Shown piece by piece: positions 2,424 through 9,282 of a DNA stretch of 64,000 nt. The stretch covers positions 128,001-192,000 of IMG/VR virus record IMGVR_UViG_3300049141_000098. The stretch is one strand, 5' to 3'. The DNA is from a virus (lineage: Duplodnaviria > Caudoviricetes). A model generated the notes under the pieces. It had not been told where the DNA came from. It did no database searches and saw only the letters and a program-made list of their open reading frames with translations. A program made the translations under genes and the position numbers. Positions within the stretch are counted from its first letter, which is position 1; each line of letters starts with the position of its first letter.

Positions 2424-2739
2424 GCAGACTCCGCGCTTCCTTAAGGACCTCAAGCGTCTGGATTCGCAGAGTCTGGAACGCTTCAAGCAGGTTGTTCTGG
2501 AGCAGTTCGTGCCGGACGTCGATGCCGGAACCTTCCGCAAGTCGCTGCGAGTGAAGCAGATGCAGGGCACCCCGAAGGGGCAGGTCGTCTACGAGATGAC
2601 GTGGGCCCACGACGGCCGGGCCACCTTCCAGTATGGCGAGGAGATCAAGGACGGCGTTCCGCATGTCATCTGGCGTCGCGTCGGCACCCACAGCGCGCTC
2701 AACATCGTGCCGGGCAGGATGAGCAAGTTCAGCGGTTGA
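2410..2739 (+). CDS. RelE/YafQ-superfamily toxin (putative ribosome-dependent mRNase)
   Basis: MPTFEQTPRFLKDLKRL...LRVKQMQG...YEMTWAHDGRATFQYG...HVIWRRVGTH, typical of actinobacterial RelE-like toxins. Confidence 0.75.
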   Translation: MPTFEQTPRFLKDLKRLDSQSLERFKQVVLEQFVPDVDAGTFRKSLRVKQMQGTPKGQVVYEMTWAHDGRATFQYGEEIKDGVPHVIWRRVGTHSALNIVPGRMSKFSG

Positions 2740-2895
2740 TCTGGTGTCCTGCGGAACGTGCGCCGCCGAGCATGAGGACGGGCGACGGTTTCACTGGAAT
2801 TTCATTCCTCAAAACTGCTACAGAACAGCAAAGTTCTGCGCTAGAGTTGAAGAGTCAGCCGATGAACCGAGGTTGAGCGGCGAGTCGGCTGACGT

Positions 2896-2971
2896 AGGGG
2901 TGTAGCTCAGTTGGCCAGAGCGCCGGTCTCCAAAACCGGGTCTGTCGCGAGTTCGAATCTCGCCTCCCCTG
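2896..2971 (+). tRNA. trnW: tRNA-Trp (CCA)
   Basis: Cloverleaf; anticodon arm CCGGT-CTCCAAA-ACCGG; T loop TTCGAAT; no encoded CCA end. Confidence 0.92.
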
Positions 2972-3011
2972 CTGATCCCCGGGGTGCCACCCCCGTCTCC
3001 CCGGGGATCGC

Positions 3012-3085
3012 CGGGATGTAGCGCAGCTTGGTAGCGCGTCCGCTTTGGGAGCGGAAGGCCGTGGGTTCAAATCCCGCCATCCCGA
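3012..3085 (+). tRNA. trnP: tRNA-Pro (UGG)
   Basis: Cloverleaf; TCCGC-TTTGGGA-GCGGA; T loop TTCAAAT. Confidence 0.93.
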
Positions 3086-3118
3086 CTGGCGATCAGTAAG
3101 ATCTGGTTGCTCGGCACC

Positions 3119-3214
3119 GTGCACGGCCCGCTAGCGCGGCTCATGTCCCGACATACTGGAAAGAGCGACAGCGCGGGGCAAGCCGTGAAGAGTGTGCGAA
3201 CACGGCGCACCTCT
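3119..3214 (+). ncRNA. Structured spacer RNA of unknown type
   Basis: CACGGC/GCCGTG outer stem with nested GCTC/GAGC and ATGT/ACAT helices, then GAG-GTGCG/CGCAC-CTC hairpin. Confidence 0.3.
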
Positions 3215-3232
3215 CGCCCACAACTGAACAGC

Positions 3233-3359
3233 TCTTCCGTAGTCCAGCGGCCTAAGACAGTGCGGTCGTGGGGATCGAGACCCCAGAGGTTAAAACCTCG
3301 AACCGCTTCGGCGGAATGGCCCCGACGCACTAACGCGGGTTCAAATCCCGTCGGAAGAG
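3233..3359 (+). ncRNA. tRNA-like RNA with a 61-nt three-hairpin insert in place of the anticodon loop
   Basis: Acceptor TCTTCCG/CGGAAGA, D arm, anticodon stem GTGCG/CGCAC, 4-nt variable loop, T arm GCGGG-TTCAAAT-CCCGT. Confidence 0.8.
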
Positions 3360-3367
3360 AATCACAT

Positions 3368-3447
3368 GAGGTCAGTGACGGAATTGGTAGACGTTGGTGA
3401 GGGTGCACGCCAAGCCCCTCGTGCGGGTTCGAACCCCGCCTGATCTC
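3368..3447 (+). ncRNA. Atypical tRNA-like RNA (His-like G-1:C73, distorted anticodon arm)
   Basis: Acceptor AGGTCAG/CTGATCT plus G-1:C73; D arm ACG-GAATTGGTAGA-CGT; T arm GCGGG-TTCGAAC-CCCGC; no regular 7-nt loop with U33. Confidence 0.6.
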
Positions 3448-3450
3448 CTG

Positions 3451-3508
3451 AACCCCGAGGACTCTGTCCTCTTTCTCAGGGCGTCGTCCAAGGGAGTTCT
3501 CGGGGTTT
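3451..3508 (+). terminator. Long hairpin, possible terminator or processing site
   Basis: AACCCCGAG / CTCGGGGTT followed by TT. Confidence 0.4.
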
Positions 3509-3533
3509 TCACATACAGCGAAAGGGGTGGGGT

Positions 3534-3872
3534 ATGGGTGCAGGTCACAACCTTCTGCACATCACGGTGGACAAAGAGGCAGTGCACGAGCGCTTCCCCG
3601 ATCTCGATGCCCGGATCGCCGACCACATCAAGCAGTGGCGCGACTCGGTCGAGCCGGGCACTACGGTCACCATCAACAAGATGATGAACTGCTCCAGCAC
3701 CTGTGGCTGCTCGGCCGACGGCCAGTCGACCAAGTGCACGGGCGCGGGGCACGGCATGCCAGCCGAGATCGTGTTGGGCTTGGTCTTCCCGCCCGATGGA
3801 GGCCCGTGCTCGATCGAGGGTGTGAAGGGCATCGCAGACACCACGCCGAAGCAGATCCAGCGCACCGCGTAA
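3534..3872 (+). CDS. Hypothetical protein (Cys-rich centre)
   Basis: RBS GAAAGGGGTGGGG; 112-aa ORF inside the tRNA cluster. Confidence 0.7.
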   Translation: MGAGHNLLHITVDKEAVHERFPDLDARIADHIKQWRDSVEPGTTVTINKMMNCSSTCGCSADGQSTKCTGAGHGMPAEIVLGLVFPPDGGPCSIEGVKGIADTTPKQIQRTA

Positions 3873-3960
3873 CGAACGGGGATGCCCACGTGGTAGCCCT
3901 GTCATGAGAGTGATCCGTCCGCGATTTCGAGGCAGAGGGCATTCGAATCAAGGAGGGATC

Positions 3961-4128
3961 ATGACGGAGAACAAGCTGCGCCGTACGTGTTCGCACTGCG
4001 GAGTGGTCGGTGAAGTGGGCGTCGACATCTTCTGGATTACGGACCCCTACATTGAGGAGATTGAAGGCGAGGTCGTCAAGCAGTGACTTCACGAGCATTG
4101 TGCAGATGAAATCGCTGACGAGATCTAA
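3961..4128 (+). pseudogene. Small Zn-ribbon-like phage protein interrupted by an in-frame TGA at 4084-4086
   Basis: RBS AAGGAGGG; MTENK...CSHCG...DPYIEEIEGEVVKQ-TGA-LHEHCADEIADEI-TAA in one frame. Confidence 0.6.
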
Positions 4129-4170
4129 AACTCTCCACCGGGAAGGCCGCCCCGGAACATTAGCGGCCAT

Positions 4171-4243
4171 ACCCCCGTAGCTCAGCGGATAGAGCAGACG
4201 CCTTCTAAGCGTCGGGTCGCAGGTTCAAATCCTGTCGGGGGTG
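4171..4243 (+). tRNA. trnR: tRNA-Arg (UCU)
   Basis: Cloverleaf; GACGC-CTTCTAA-GCGTC. Confidence 0.93.
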
Positions 4244-4396
4244 CGACGGTGCACGGCTCGGACTCATACTCCGCCCCGTGTATGGAGGATCAGGTGGCGG
4301 TGGGAGGTCAGCCACTACCCCAGGATCCCCTGACCCCTGGAGGCGAGTGACCTCTCCCTCCGGGGGTTCCGGTAGAACGGAAGGAGAGGAGGAAGC

Positions 4397-4777
4397 GTGG
4401 GGTGCTCTCACAGGAGTGAGGGTTTGAACTTCACTCACCGCGACGTCCCCGAAGCCGTTGCCTACGCCAAGGGGAAGTACTACACGGACGGCGTGAAGCG
4501 ATTCTTGTACTACTGCGCCAGCTTGGAATGCTACGGCCGGGATGACAATATCCATGTCGGCAGGGGCAAGCTCAGCGGTAAACTGAATCGAAGGTTGAAC
4601 GTCGACTTGGTCAACTTCTACACGCACTGGGAAACGTTCGGCACAGGGGGAAAGAAGAGGGATCTCGTGGGACTCCAGACGCGCAGGCGTCGAGCACGAG
4701 TCCTCAAGCAGCTTCCCTATCTGAGGTGGGAAGATGACGGAGGGCCGTCGAGGATAGGGCCGAAACACAGCCCGTAG
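4397..4777 (+). CDS. Hypothetical basic protein
   Basis: RBS AAGGAGAGGAGG before GTG; 126 aa. Confidence 0.5.
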   Translation: MGCSHRSEGLNFTHRDVPEAVAYAKGKYYTDGVKRFLYYCASLECYGRDDNIHVGRGKLSGKLNRRLNVDLVNFYTHWETFGTGGKKRDLVGLQTRRRRARVLKQLPYLRWEDDGGPSRIGPKHSP

Positions 4778-4793
4778 GAAAACTCAATAGCGA

Positions 4794-4866
4794 GCATCCG
4801 TAGCTCAGTTGGTAGAGCGCCTGACTCTTAATCAGGCTGTCGCTGGTTCGAGACCAGCCGGATGCA
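4794..4866 (+). tRNA. trnK: tRNA-Lys (CUU)
   Basis: Cloverleaf; CCTGA-CTCTTAA-TCAGG. Confidence 0.93.
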
Positions 4867-4973
4867 CGGGGTGGTATGCACTGCGGCAGACTTCCCCTGC
4901 AAAAGACAAGATCCGCAATTCCGGTGAGCATCCGGGTTACACCTGCTCAGGGCTGGCATCCCTAACTGCCGTG

Positions 4974-5047
4974 GGGCCTGTAGCTCAGACAGTCAGAGCG
5001 CCGGAGTGAAATCCCGGAGGTCGGTGGTGCGAAACCATCCGGGCCCA
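4974..5047 (+). tRNA. trnF: tRNA-Phe (GAA), somewhat degenerate
   Basis: Cloverleaf with loop GTGAAAT; D loop lacks GG; T loop TGCGAAA. Confidence 0.7.
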
Positions 5048-5050
5048 CAA

Positions 5051-5138
5051 GTCGGACGACGAGCCGCTAACGCTGATCTACTGTGACGGGTGGATCGCAG
5101 GCGAAGGCGGCCCCTGCGGGGAAGCGCCGTCGTCCGGC
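5051..5138 (+). ncRNA. Multi-stem structured RNA of unknown type
   Basis: 11-bp closing stem GTCGGACGACG/CGTCGTCCGGC enclosing GCCGC/GCGGC and GATCTAC/GTGGATC. Confidence 0.45.
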
Positions 5139-5159
5139 TGTCAACAATTCCATATTCAA

Positions 5160-5231
5160 TCCCCGGTAGTTCAACTGGCAGAACACCGGCCTCTGGAGTC
5201 GGGAATCCTGGTTCAAATCCAGGCTGGGGAG
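5160..5231 (+). tRNA. trnQ: tRNA-Gln (CUG)
   Basis: Cloverleaf; CCGGC-CTCTGGA-GTCGG. Confidence 0.92.
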
Positions 5232-5372
5232 CGGCCGGTAGCTCAGGTTCGAATCCTGGATCAGACTGCGGTCTGAGTAGTGTAGGGAAGCACGCCAGCA
5301 AATGGGAGGTCTGGGTTCGAGCCCCAGTCGCGGCTTCGGTCGTGATGGTGTAATTGGCAGCACGCTCATCAA
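5232..5372 (+). pseudogene. Run of tRNA fragments and a degenerate Cys-like tRNA
   Basis: TAGCTCA fused to T arm AGG-TTCGAAT-CCT; second body with CCA-GCAAA-TGG and T arm CTGGG-TTCGAGC-CCCAG; isolated 5' half GGTCGTGATGGTGTAATTGGCAGCAC. Confidence 0.5.
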
Positions 5373-5445
5373 TCCTCGATAGCTCAATTGGCAGAGTACG
5401 GCACTGTTAATGCTGGGGTTACTGGTTCGAGTCCAGTTCGGGGAG
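5373..5445 (+). tRNA. trnN: tRNA-Asn (GUU)
   Basis: Cloverleaf; CGGCA-CTGTTAA-TGCTG. Confidence 0.92.
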
Positions 5446-5540
5446 CGAGGGAGCCTTCAGGCTCACCAGGGTCAAGCGGGCCCCTGACCGTTCGAGTCGG
5501 CAGAAAAGCCCGCCCAGAACCCTTCGGAAAGGGAACGAGA

Positions 5541-5735
5541 ATGGGTGAAAGGCTTGACCGGATCAAGCGGGTTATCAACCCGCCAGTCACTGCCGAGTGG
5601 ATCGACACGGTGGTAACGCAGCGCAGCGAACAGGCCGACGAGATCGAAGAATCGAAGGGCCCGAAGGCGGCGCAGCGGCATCGCGAGAAGACCGGCAGGA
5701 TGGTAGGGAAGATGTTGCGAAGAGGCGTCATCTGA
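5541..5735 (+). CDS. Hypothetical protein
   Basis: RBS GAAAGGGAA before ATG 5541; 64 aa. Confidence 0.65.
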   Translation: MGERLDRIKRVINPPVTAEWIDTVVTQRSEQADEIEESKGPKAAQRHREKTGRMVGKMLRRGVI

Positions 5736-5742
5736 CCGACCC

Positions 5743-5860
5743 GGGCGGGTGCCAGAGCGGCCTATTGGACCGGACGCAATCCGGTTGATCCGTCTGAGCC
5801 TCGGCGTACGGCAACGAGGCTCGTCAGCGGTGATCGTGGGTTCAAATCCCACCCCGTCCA
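5743..5860 (+). ncRNA. tRNA-like RNA with 50-nt variable arm and a shrunken GCA (Cys-like) anticodon loop
   Basis: Acceptor GGGCGGG/CCCGTCC; D arm CCAG/TTGG; CCGGA-CGCAA-TCCGG; long hairpin 5786-5835; T arm GTGGG-TTCAAAT-CCCAC. Confidence 0.8.
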
Positions 5861-5886
5861 CAACGCTTGCGCCCAGGCGGAGCGAT

Positions 5887-5980
5887 ACAGCAGAGCAACA
5901 CGTGCTCGCCGTGTACGACTTGACGCATCTAGGGGACCCTCCTCTCCACTCTGCGAGAGGGTGGGGCCGACGGAAGCTGT
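5887..5980 (+). ncRNA. Possible structured RNA downstream of the tRNA cluster
   Basis: ACAGC/GCTGT closing stem with GAGC/GCTC and CCGT/ACGG inner helices. Confidence 0.25.
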
Positions 5981-6004
5981 GAACCTTCGGAAGGGATGAA
6001 GAGG

Positions 6005-6277
6005 ATGGACGCAGGGAGCCTGGACCGGCACATCACCGGGAACTGGGGAGAGGACTCTGTCGCACCGGAGTTCGTCGCAGCGCGAGAGCTGGGCGACTTC
6101 GAGGCGAGCGCCGAGGTCGTCATCGACGCCGCGCCGCAGACCGACGAGAAGTGCATCCCCGTGACGGTGGAGAAGGTGTCGATCACCTCCGGCATGGTGT
6201 ACGTGACGACGAAGGAGCTGGCCTGGCCCCTCGTCATCCCGGAGGATGACACCGTCTGGTTCGCCGACGAGAACTGA
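6005..6277 (+). CDS. Hypothetical acidic protein
   Basis: ORF with high GC3 and RBS. Confidence 0.65.
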   Translation: MDAGSLDRHITGNWGEDSVAPEFVAARELGDFEASAEVVIDAAPQTDEKCIPVTVEKVSITSGMVYVTTKELAWPLVIPEDDTVWFADEN

Positions 6278-6284
6278 TTCACCC

Positions 6285-6500
6285 GTGACTCACCTCAGTG
6301 AGGCCCTGGAGCGGCACCTCGCATCGACTCCGCGCCTTGCGGACGACCTGCCCGAACTGGTCGGGTCGCAAGAGCTGGCTGATGCCATGCTGCGCGGTCG
6401 GCATCAGGCGAATTTGTACGAGGCGACCTTGTTGGCGGCGTACTGCAAGACGTCGGTGAAGGATTTCTTCGAGCTGGACAGCACCAAGAAGGGAAACTGA
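6285..6500 (+). CDS. Small protein, possible XRE-like HTH
   Basis: GTG 6285; C-terminus ATLLAAYCKTSVKDFF resembles the end of XRE domains. Confidence 0.5.
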   Translation: MTHLSEALERHLASTPRLADDLPELVGSQELADAMLRGRHQANLYEATLLAAYCKTSVKDFFELDSTKKGN

Positions 6501-6769
6501 TGGAGCAGGGCCGGATTACCGTCAAGGGATCAATCGAGTTTCGTGATGCGGCGATAGAGCTGTCCAAGAAGGGGAGCGAGGTGTACGCCAGCCTTGCCGG
6601 ATCCGCGAAGACGTACCGAATCCTCACCGGCACGATGAGTCGGGTCACCGTGGAGGATCTCTTCTCAGCAGACCACCCGCCAATCCTGATGGAGGACTTC
6701 GCCACAGCGCTCGTCATCGCGGACAAGAACGGCAAGGACGTGCCGACCATCGACGTCTTCACACCCTGA
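6500..6769 (+). CDS. Hypothetical protein
   Basis: TGATG-coupled ORF. Confidence 0.7.
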   Translation: MEQGRITVKGSIEFRDAAIELSKKGSEVYASLAGSAKTYRILTGTMSRVTVEDLFSADHPPILMEDFATALVIADKNGKDVPTIDVFTP

Positions 6770-8584: not shown

Positions 8585-9019
8585 GTGGACGCGATCGAAG
8601 TGAGCAGGAAGCTCCGGGAGAACGACAACGGTGAGCTGATCTTGTTCGTCGGGCCCGACTACCAGCGCATGCAGGTGCGGGCGCGCATGGCAGGTTTCCC
8701 AACCCGGCAGGCCAGCCGCACGGAAGACGTTCAGGCCCTCAAGGAAGAGATCGCCGCCAGCGGCAAGTCGCTCATCCTTCTCGCCTCCGCGCCGGAGGTG
8801 GAAGGGTCTCTCGACCGCAGTGCGTTCGCGGATCTCGCCCACCTCGCCTACGGCTCTGACCGAGTCGTCTACTTCGGCGTCGAGTCATCCGTCGTCATCC
8901 ATCCCCTGCCCGCCAGCACTCGACTGACAGCCCGCCATGGCGCTCTGCACGTGCATCAAGCCGTCGACACTGTCGCGCCCGGAGAGACGGTGGTCGGACT
9001 GTCGGTGAACCACCTGTGA
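8585..9019 (+). CDS. Hypothetical protein
   Basis: RBS GAAAGGGAAAGAGG before GTG 8585. Confidence 0.7.
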   Translation: MDAIEVSRKLRENDNGELILFVGPDYQRMQVRARMAGFPTRQASRTEDVQALKEEIAASGKSLILLASAPEVEGSLDRSAFADLAHLAYGSDRVVYFGVESSVVIHPLPASTRLTARHGALHVHQAVDTVAPGETVVGLSVNHL

Positions 9020-9282
9020 GCGATCCGGGTATCAGCCCAGCCCAGGTGTCCGTCGTCCTCGACGCGATGATCCATGACTTCCAGGCCATGTTCCCCGGCA
9101 TCGGACGGGACACGGCCACGCTGTGCCTCATCACCATGAGCGAGGTCATGCGCGACTGCGGCGCCGCCAACGAAGCTGAGACTCTCTTCCTGAACCGCAT
9201 CGAGGAAGCCGAAGGCAGGCGAGAGGCTTGGGCTCTCGATGTACGACGAGCAGTGAAGAGCAAGGAAAGGGGAGGCTCGTGA
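9016..9282 (+). CDS. Hypothetical protein
   Basis: GTGA-coupled ORF. Confidence 0.7.
   Translation: MSDPGISPAQVSVVLDAMIHDFQAMFPGIGRDTATLCLITMSEVMRDCGAANEAETLFLNRIEEAEGRREAWALDVRRAVKSKERGGS

Follow-up and report, generated by a model that had tools for sequence, protein, structure and literature searches.

A selected family of tRNA-shaped RNAs with an oversized variable arm and a shortened anticodon arm in Streptomyces-type jumbo phages

Introduction

Transfer RNA (tRNA) genes of phages are usually read as a codon supply or as replacements for tRNAs destroyed by defence systems. The variable arm of class II tRNAs is specified only as greater than 10 nucleotides (nt), and the marks for seryl-tRNA synthetase (SerRS) are a long variable arm together with G73 (PMC7609411). 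Allo-tRNAs and selC*-type tRNAs, known from soil metagenomes and phages, decode; their arms are shorter, their anticodon loops have 7 nt and their acceptor/T-stem geometry is 8/4 or 9/3 (Mukai et al. 2017, PMC5389517). In synthetic tRNAs tagged with an aptamer on the variable arm, a bulge in the variable stem blocked SerRS (Mukai 2020, PMC7590224), and the bacterial YrlA RNA (RF02553) is circularly permuted, with a closed acceptor, ends on the anticodon side and a GNCGAA motif (Chen et al. 2014, PMC4201824). This study describes a tRNA-shaped RNA gene of 118 nt, hereafter the element, at positions 5743 to 5860 (plus strand) of a 64,000-nt stretch of phage DNA (IMG/VR virus record IMGVR_UViG_3300049141_000098, positions 128,001 to 192,000; hereafter the window, whose positions serve as coordinates). 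The record measures 259,646 bp with terminal repeats and 63.6% G+C; the window copy and the phage that carries it are denoted G000. Compared with the described systems, the element keeps the features by which tRNAs are handled, apparently drops decoding, and gains a large, selected, sequence-specific appendage.

Results and Discussion

Seven distinct, syntenic copies of the element were recovered: the window copy, a copy shared by loci L060, L061 and L062, a variant on contigs X3-X5, locus L039 on the 251-kb contig G001, L079, a copy shared by L077 and L078, and L075. The relatives are metagenomic contigs together with the sister phage G001, and the element stands at the end of the tRNA array as it does in the window. 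Family features are a length of 118 to 121 nt, a cloverleaf with a 7-bp acceptor stem and a 5-bp T-stem, an invariant CCGGA-NNNAA-UCCGG hairpin, a variable arm of 49 to 52 nt, and an arm loop of 11 to 12 nt ending in CAA. Overall, the element represents a real, selected and previously undescribed family of non-decoding tRNA mimics, so far confined to a clade of Streptomyces-type jumbo phages.

The selection on the fold is seen most directly in the base pairs. In adjacent coding DNA, G000 and G001 are 68-77% identical. With hand-curated structures, 27 of their 37 homologous pairs are unchanged, seven have changed on both sides with pairing kept, two have changed on one side with pairing kept, and one is broken. 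Across the six stored copies (alignment A6), 95.5% of the pair cells hold and double changes occur at 15 of the 37 pairs (27 cells), a count reached by none of 500 shuffles and compared with two to four in slid-partner controls; RNAalifold applied to an independent MAFFT alignment recovered the same helices. The covariation is concentrated in the acceptor stem (4/7 pairs), the T-stem (4/5) and the distal stem of the variable arm (6/7). Sequence itself hardly varies in the D-arm or in the short-hairpin stem, and the same is true of the arm base (CG.CU / GU.AGCG) and its 11-nt loop (G......G.CAA). Copies are 118, 120 or 121 nt long; therefore, no conserved reading frame runs through the element. 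Compensatory evolution has preserved both the cloverleaf and the long arm, and homologs with compensatory changes in the arm, which an earlier sequence-only reading of this DNA had proposed as a check, were found with the six covarying distal pairs.

Folding of the window copy with RNAfold gave -57.7 kcal/mol (z = -3.07), which none of 200 shuffles equalled; the minimum-energy structure recovered the acceptor, short hairpin, long arm and T-arm, and drew the D region with a shorter alternative stem. All parts lie on the plus strand. The 7-bp acceptor stem pairs GGGCGGG (5743-5749) with CCCGTCC (5853-5859), followed by a discriminator A at 5860, and CCA is not encoded. U8 and G9 follow the 5' acceptor strand, and A14 is likewise present. 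The near-invariant D-arm (5752-5768) has a 4-bp stem, CCAG/TTGG, and a 9-nt loop, AGCGGCCTA, that includes the elbow GG. The shortened anticodon arm (5770-5784) has the 5-bp stem CCGGA/TCCGG and the 5-nt loop CGCAA, and thus measures 15 nt against the usual 17; its stem is invariant in the family, loop positions 1-3 vary, and pair 27:43 beneath it covaries as A-U/G-U/C-G in the RNAalifold analysis. Two unpaired U separate this hairpin from the 49-nt variable arm (5787-5835), which consists of a basal 3+3 bp with a UG bulge, CUG/CAG, a 3-nt bulge on the 3' side and the distal 7-bp stem. The 11-nt arm loop (5804-5814), GCGTACGGCAA, contains the self-complementary hexamer CGTACG at 5805-5810, and the T-arm GTGGG-TTCAAAT-CCCAC (5836-5852) completes the cloverleaf. 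The sequence is therefore as first described in its full acceptor, D and T arms and short hairpin. The description of the variable arm as one long bulged hairpin held for the architecture and was slightly imprecise in the helix list, in which CCG/CGG and GATC share one base.

The arm was also said to be unusually large, which is borne out by comparison with the 128 distinct tRNAs of all fetched loci, the longest of which has 95 nt and the class II members 82-91 nt, against 118 nt for the element. The side arm is more than twice the usual maximum length.

The copies were recovered by several routes. Blastn of the element and of the neighbouring element B against GenBank phages gave generic T-arm or tRNA matches or none. 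In IMG/VR, the 624-aa neighbour, an exact 20-mer and a pattern demanding the CGCAA loop were unmatched, and two patterns run on metagenome contigs found no match because most relatives differ in the D-loop or were reachable only via proteins. A looser pattern (a Ser/Tyr-type D-loop, then a T-loop 60-90 nt later) matched 51 IMG/VR loci, including L039 on G001, a clear homolog at the syntenic array position. Further contigs were reached by protein searches with two flanking small open reading frames (ORFs), and the X3-X5 variant came from Logan contigs of three rhizosphere runs aligned to the window. The sole match among genome contigs, L055 (a Nitrospiraceae metagenome-assembled genome), was discarded as a chance match within coding sequence. 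A covariance model built from the first three copies (R1) gave 142 bits for L060/61/62, 128 for L079, 123 for L077/78 and 63 for L075. The six stored members score 63-143 bits, the window copy reaching 142.8 against the family model, and anything else searched scores at most 48. Relatives of a 93-aa ORF downstream of the element were also found on 253-412-kb contigs in Streptomyces isolate assemblies, which points to Streptomyces as the host genus. The carriers form a clade of giant soil phages of roughly 250 kb, probably phages of Streptomyces.

Standard annotation does not see the element. ARAGORN in default mode called neither a tRNA nor a tmRNA (transfer-messenger RNA) on it, and Rfam tRNA (RF00005) gave no match on it at the gathering score or at E<=10. 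A 'tRNA-Pro with 25-nt intron', called by ARAGORN when introns were allowed, was rejected as forced, requiring a mismatched stem. The acceptor, D and T arms of a canonical tRNA are present with their elbow nucleotides (GG in the D-loop, UUCRAAU in the T-loop); the 7-nt anticodon loop, U33 and an anticodon conserved among orthologs are lacking.

Known identities were considered in turn. A tRNA-Ser or SerRS substrate was rejected on the bulged arm stem and on the failure to keep G73, the discriminators over the copies being A, C, C, A, G, A and A; among the reference tRNAs taken from the fetched phage loci, those for Ser all end in G73 and those for Tyr and Leu in A73. The identity of tRNA-Cys lies in a GCA anticodon and U73, and this assignment was rejected with GCA not conserved and U73 in no copy. 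Bacterial tRNA-Tyr is marked by GUA, A73 and a long variable arm; a GUA-like loop with A73 occurs in G001 and L079, and the loop is 2 nt short in all copies. Alanine identity through G3-U70 was rejected, the pair being present only in the window copy (one of six aligned). A tmRNA was also rejected: Rfam tmRNA (RF00023) matches only the two ends of the element, at 23 bits against a gathering score of 47, and the tag reading frame and pseudoknots are absent. YrlA or another Y RNA was set aside with no RF02553 match on the element, no GNCGAA motif and an rsr gene about 50 kb distant, and an allo-tRNA with 7/5 acceptor/T geometry in all six copies, not 8/4 or 9/3.

The loop that would read a codon is not conserved. 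It is CGCAA, UGCAA, CGUAA or CCCAA depending on the copy, and the central triplet and discriminator are GCA with A73 in G000, GCA with C73 in L061 and X3-X5, GCA with G73 in L077, GUA with A73 in G001 and L079, and CCA with A73 in L075. In the array tRNAs for Pro, Lys, Phe, Gln and Asn, the 7-nt anticodon loop and the discriminator are identical between arrays. Because the fold is kept while the loop and discriminator vary, the element appears to be constrained as a shape with specific surfaces and not as a codon reader or the substrate of one synthetase, and it almost certainly does not decode. The 'Cys-type' label of the sequence-only reading is not supported, GCA having become GUA in two lineages and CCA in one. 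Its broader proposal of a tRNA scaffold presenting an extra stem, or a non-decoding mimic, is favoured by the selection on the whole fold, including the arm, while anticodon and discriminator drift.

The ancestor was, as a best guess, a class II, tRNA-Tyr-like gene. E. coli tyrU aligns gap-free with the element over positions 1-33 (24/33 identical) and shares its D-arm layout, A26, A31 and C32, with an anticodon arm of 17 nt against 15; removing U33 and one A from the Tyr loop CUGUAAA gives CGUAA, the loop of G001. Typing of the ancestor against phage class II tRNAs gave no usable signal. Remodelling of such a gene would have removed 2 nt from the anticodon arm and grown the variable arm into a rigid bulged helix of 49-52 nt.

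The arm loop offers the most specific hint of function. Its positions 2-7 are CGUACG in G000-type copies and CCAUGG in G001, both perfectly self-complementary hexamers at the same offset, which differ at four mutually compensating positions. Four stored copies have exactly the same loop, as does the X3-X5 variant, and the L075 hexamer UGUACG is self-complementary with G-U pairing. A random loop of the same composition would contain such a hexamer 7% of the time, and two independent loops would carry one at the same offset with a chance of 0.08% (about 0.0008); the self-duplex energies are -9.2 and -10.4 kcal/mol. The dimerisation initiation site of retroviruses likewise presents a 6-nt self-complementary sequence in a loop with unpaired purine flanks, a layout shared by the arm loop as a functional analogy only and not through homology. 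Combined, these features suggest kissing-loop dimerisation through the hexamer. Kissing between the 5-nt loop and the 11-nt loop was rejected by inspection, the complementarity being inconsistent across copies.

From these findings, the preferred reading is that the element is a functional non-decoding tRNA-derived small RNA of class II, Tyr-like descent that uses its arm as an interaction handle (probability roughly 0.6). Because the acceptor, T-arm and D/T elbow are canonical, the RNA would be transcribed with the tRNA operon and matured by host RNase P, 3' trimming and CCA addition; a phage-encoded CCA-adding enzyme was searched for and not found, so that maturation would depend on the host. 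The mature RNA would act as a tRNA look-alike, likely built to dock onto something else, with the arm as the specific interaction module. Kissing of the purine-flanked hexamers could join two copies into a two-headed tRNA mimic; alternatively, a dedicated protein may recognise the arm loop. Candidate partners would be a tRNA-binding host defence or repair factor, or the Ro60 protein of the phage itself. That the dimer acts as a two-headed decoy, sequestering or bridging a host factor that recognises tRNA (e.g., a tRNA-targeting defence nuclease or a tRNA-end-modifying toxin), is a speculative extension and unlikely to hold in this form; if true, it would have no described precedent among tRNA-like RNAs.

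Several observations weigh against the preferred reading. The alignment used for the final pair counts was fitted to the covariance model, and much of the covariation rests on G001, L077, L079 and L075 because the seven copies include five that are closely related to one another. The palindrome in the loop was spotted post hoc, and given four changed positions its survival has a chance of about 0.11. Engineered tRNAs with aptamer hairpins on the variable arm can still translate (PMC7590224), for which reason arm length is not used here as an argument against decoding. Additionally, L059 and L072, two related phages that share the array, do not carry the element, which is therefore dispensable in some lineages; at the corresponding slot L059 has about 150 nt that do not fold significantly (z = -0.8), only the first 20 or so of which resemble the 5' end of the element. 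The sequence-only reading had named a long arm absent or unstructured in related phages as evidence that would count against it. The arm is structured in every copy; the whole element is gone from these two phages.

It is distinctly unlikely that the element is a working though odd decoding tRNA whose giant arm is an extra identity or recruitment handle. Such a tRNA would take the closing A-U as the 32-38 pair of a 7-nt loop, with positions 33-37 as C/U-G-C/U-A-A and the anticodon as GCA (Cys) or GUA (Tyr). An ordinary anticodon loop has as many unstacked bases (33-37) as this loop has unpaired ones, namely five; U stands at the U33 position in the X3-X5 variant, and G001 and L079 combine the whole Tyr identity set given above. 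Additionally, tRNA-Tyr and tRNA-Cys calls are absent from G000 and from the array region of G001, and the aptamer-tagged tRNAs show that an enlarged arm can be compatible with translation. However, compared with tRNA-Tyr the anticodon helix lacks one stacked layer (2 nt), C33 is non-canonical in five of the six stored copies (U appearing only in the X3-X5 variant), and the 'anticodon' shifts among GCA, GUA and CCA (Cys, Tyr, Trp) and the discriminator among A, C and G between close relatives, while the true tRNAs of the same arrays are invariant at both.

A Y-RNA-like partnership with the phage Ro60/Rsr protein, in which the tRNA body would mimic a tRNA as in YrlA and the bulged arm would be the Ro60 site, is likewise improbable. 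Both full-length carrier phages encode a TROVE/Ro60 protein, a YrlA-like RNA (32 bits) adjoins rsr in G000, and there is a loose likeness between the arm base UGAUCCGU and GGUCCGA, the Ro60 contact in vertebrates (PMC4201824). However, co-occurrence in two sister phages is one phylogenetic observation, and the TROVE gene is absent from all five phage records with looser kin. The element lacks the published bacterial motif GNCGAAN0-1G, lies far from rsr, is not permuted and draws no match from the Rfam YrlA model, and its basal arm motif does not recur near rsr or YrlA. The rsr locus itself holds the TROVE/Ro60 gene (536-aa frame), the weak YrlA-like RNA and a 120-nt tRNA-like candidate at G000 81053-81277 (-), 82168-82278 (-) and 82388-82507 (-); the candidate is called by ARAGORN only with introns allowed, and tRNA-Arg and tRNA-Met adjoin this group.

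A cis-acting role, as a tRNA-shaped RNase P/Z processing signal whose cleavage would free a small upstream mRNA and a downstream mRNA, or as a protein-bound inverted repeat in the DNA, is very unlikely. The element does start 6 to 8 nt past the stop of the small upstream ORF in G000, L061, G001 and L075 (14 nt in L077), the next gene follows within about 140 nt, promoter-like or terminator-like sites were not found in 2500-6600, and the loop hexamers are palindromic in DNA as well. A processing signal, however, needs only the acceptor and T domain and not a covarying 49-nt arm, a fixed 11-nt loop and a fixed short hairpin; G-U pairs, meaningful only in RNA, are kept at several positions, and the element persists where the upstream ORF is deleted. 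Finally, a functionless, decaying class II tRNA pseudogene with a hairpin insertion, to which the loss or replacement in L059 and L072, the drift of anticodon and discriminator and the silence of tRNA finders might point, is disfavoured to the point of being extremely improbable because of the compensatory pair changes, which accumulated beside coding flanks of only 68-77% identity, and because the adjoining protein-coding DNA is less conserved than the D-arm, short hairpin and arm loop.

Neighbourhood of the element

The element closes a plus-strand array of tRNAs for Trp, Pro, Arg, Lys, Phe, Gln and Asn. A 64-codon ORF (5541-5735, plus strand) ends 8 nt upstream of it and a 93-codon ORF starts about 135 nt downstream; Pfam and PHROGs gave no family for any of the 10 neighbouring ORFs. 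The small upstream ORF is often, not always, linked with the element: it moves with it in G001, is present without it in L059, and is missing beside it in X3-X5 and L079. An obligate pairing was therefore rejected, each occurring without the other.

In G001, the small ORF (reverse complement of L057, about 8936-9128) has an in-frame TAG at exactly the place of a sense codon in G000 (CAG), L061 and L059, and the 19 codons past it show five synonymous and four conservative changes, a coding-like pattern. Stop-codon recoding as a general feature was rejected: across 19 kb, in-frame stops are absent from all other real genes, and the element offers no useful CUA.

Between tRNA-Asn and the small ORF (5447-5520) lie two hairpins, the second of which, GCGGGC/GCCCGC, encloses a T-arm-like GACCG-TTCGAGT-CGGC (z = -1.9). 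The same hairpin sequence directly abuts the element in L079 and X3-X5, both without the small ORF. Downstream, the spacer 5861-5995 is conserved in L061 and partly in L059 (GTGTACGAC, CTCTCCACTCTGCGAGAGGGTG) with no significant fold (z = -0.25); it may serve the 93-aa ORF as a promoter or in the control of translation. Distant homologs of this ORF on 272-412-kb contigs of Streptomyces isolate assemblies (L071, L073 and L074) have no tRNA array at their loci, and their neighbours include genes of RNA repair (a T4-type RNA ligase, a Hen1 methyltransferase and a PNKP-like phosphatase), Lsr2 and an AcrVA2-like gene. A phage-encoded T4-type RNA ligase was not found in a search that had no positive control.

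Other tRNA genes of these arrays are also unusual. The tRNA-Phe(GAA) at 4974-5048 is odd in two respects: its T-loop, TGCGAAA, is non-standard, and an A-C mismatch closes its anticodon stem. It is identical in G001, keeps the mismatch with few differences in L059 (T-loop TGCGAAC), and a tRNA-Phe call is also present in L077; because they are kept in relatives, these oddities look selected. Two more remodelled tRNA-like genes occupy 3232-3360 and 3369-3448. In one of them, a branched insert of 60 nt replaces the anticodon loop, the acceptor has 8 bp and the D-loop is of Ser/Tyr type; kin of this gene include L003, L005, L012, L036, L037, L042, L045, L047 and L049. The other combines a Leu-type body and an 8-nt loop. 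In G001, an 87-nt 'tRNA-Gly(ccc)' call (reverse complement of L057, 7297-7383) has the acceptor, D and T arms of the L059 tRNA-Met with a rebuilt and enlarged anticodon region, and is probably another mimic.

The best match of R1 outside the family (47.8 bits) is a long-armed tRNA-like gene on an 86-kb phage contig (L026:4935-5039 (-), the same as L052). It has the same D-arm type, a 7-nt loop AUCGCGA (anticodon CGC) and an apparent 9-bp acceptor with a 4-bp T-stem, similar to an allo-tRNA. The word GCAAC occurs in the expanded region of five of the seven scaffolds that share the G[GC]CAGAGCGGCCTA D-arm (L004, L010, L026, L050 and the window at 5811-5815), a frequency reached in none of 5000 shuffles, compared with three of 19 other candidates; the word may be a mark of a broader superfamily. 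In L004, the palindrome GCUAGC also occurs in a hairpin loop.

Conclusions

Because the element is invisible to standard annotation, similar RNAs have probably been missed. Together with several other mimics in the same operon, it suggests a toolkit of tRNA look-alikes in Streptomyces-type jumbo phages, and the family model and the palindromic-loop prediction make the question of its action directly testable in vitro.

Set against known systems, the element resembles class II tRNAs, especially Tyr but also Ser and Leu, in its 7-bp acceptor, 5-bp T-stem, UUCRAAU, U8 and A14, in a D-arm with a 9-nt loop of the AGCGGCC type, and in having a helix at the variable-arm position. It differs from them in the 49-52-nt arm, the anticodon arm of 15 instead of 17 nt, and the lack of a conserved anticodon and discriminator. 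With allo-tRNAs and selC*-type genes it shares the status of a non-canonical, long-armed tRNA-like gene, and it is set apart by its 7/5 geometry with a 5-nt loop. The tRNA-like domain of tmRNA similarly combines an acceptor and T-arm with a long helix leaving on the variable-arm side, whereas the element lacks G3-U70 in five of six copies and has a full D-stem and a short hairpin on the anticodon side. Like YrlA, it would be a non-decoding tRNA mimic of bacteria or phages, in this case of phages that both encode Ro60; unlike YrlA, it has free acceptor ends and lacks the motif.

The closest likeness in design is to the aptamer-tagged tRNAs (Mukai 2020, PMC7590224), which carry a hairpin module on the tip of the variable arm and one of which was sequestered by a tightly binding protein; the same design logic is proposed for the element, although those tRNAs are synthetic and keep a 7-nt anticodon loop for amber suppression. 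The element would thus be a natural counterpart of these constructs, and the small set of known tRNA mimics (YrlA, tmRNA, viral tRNA-like structures and mascRNA) gains with it a type that is not permuted and has free acceptor ends.
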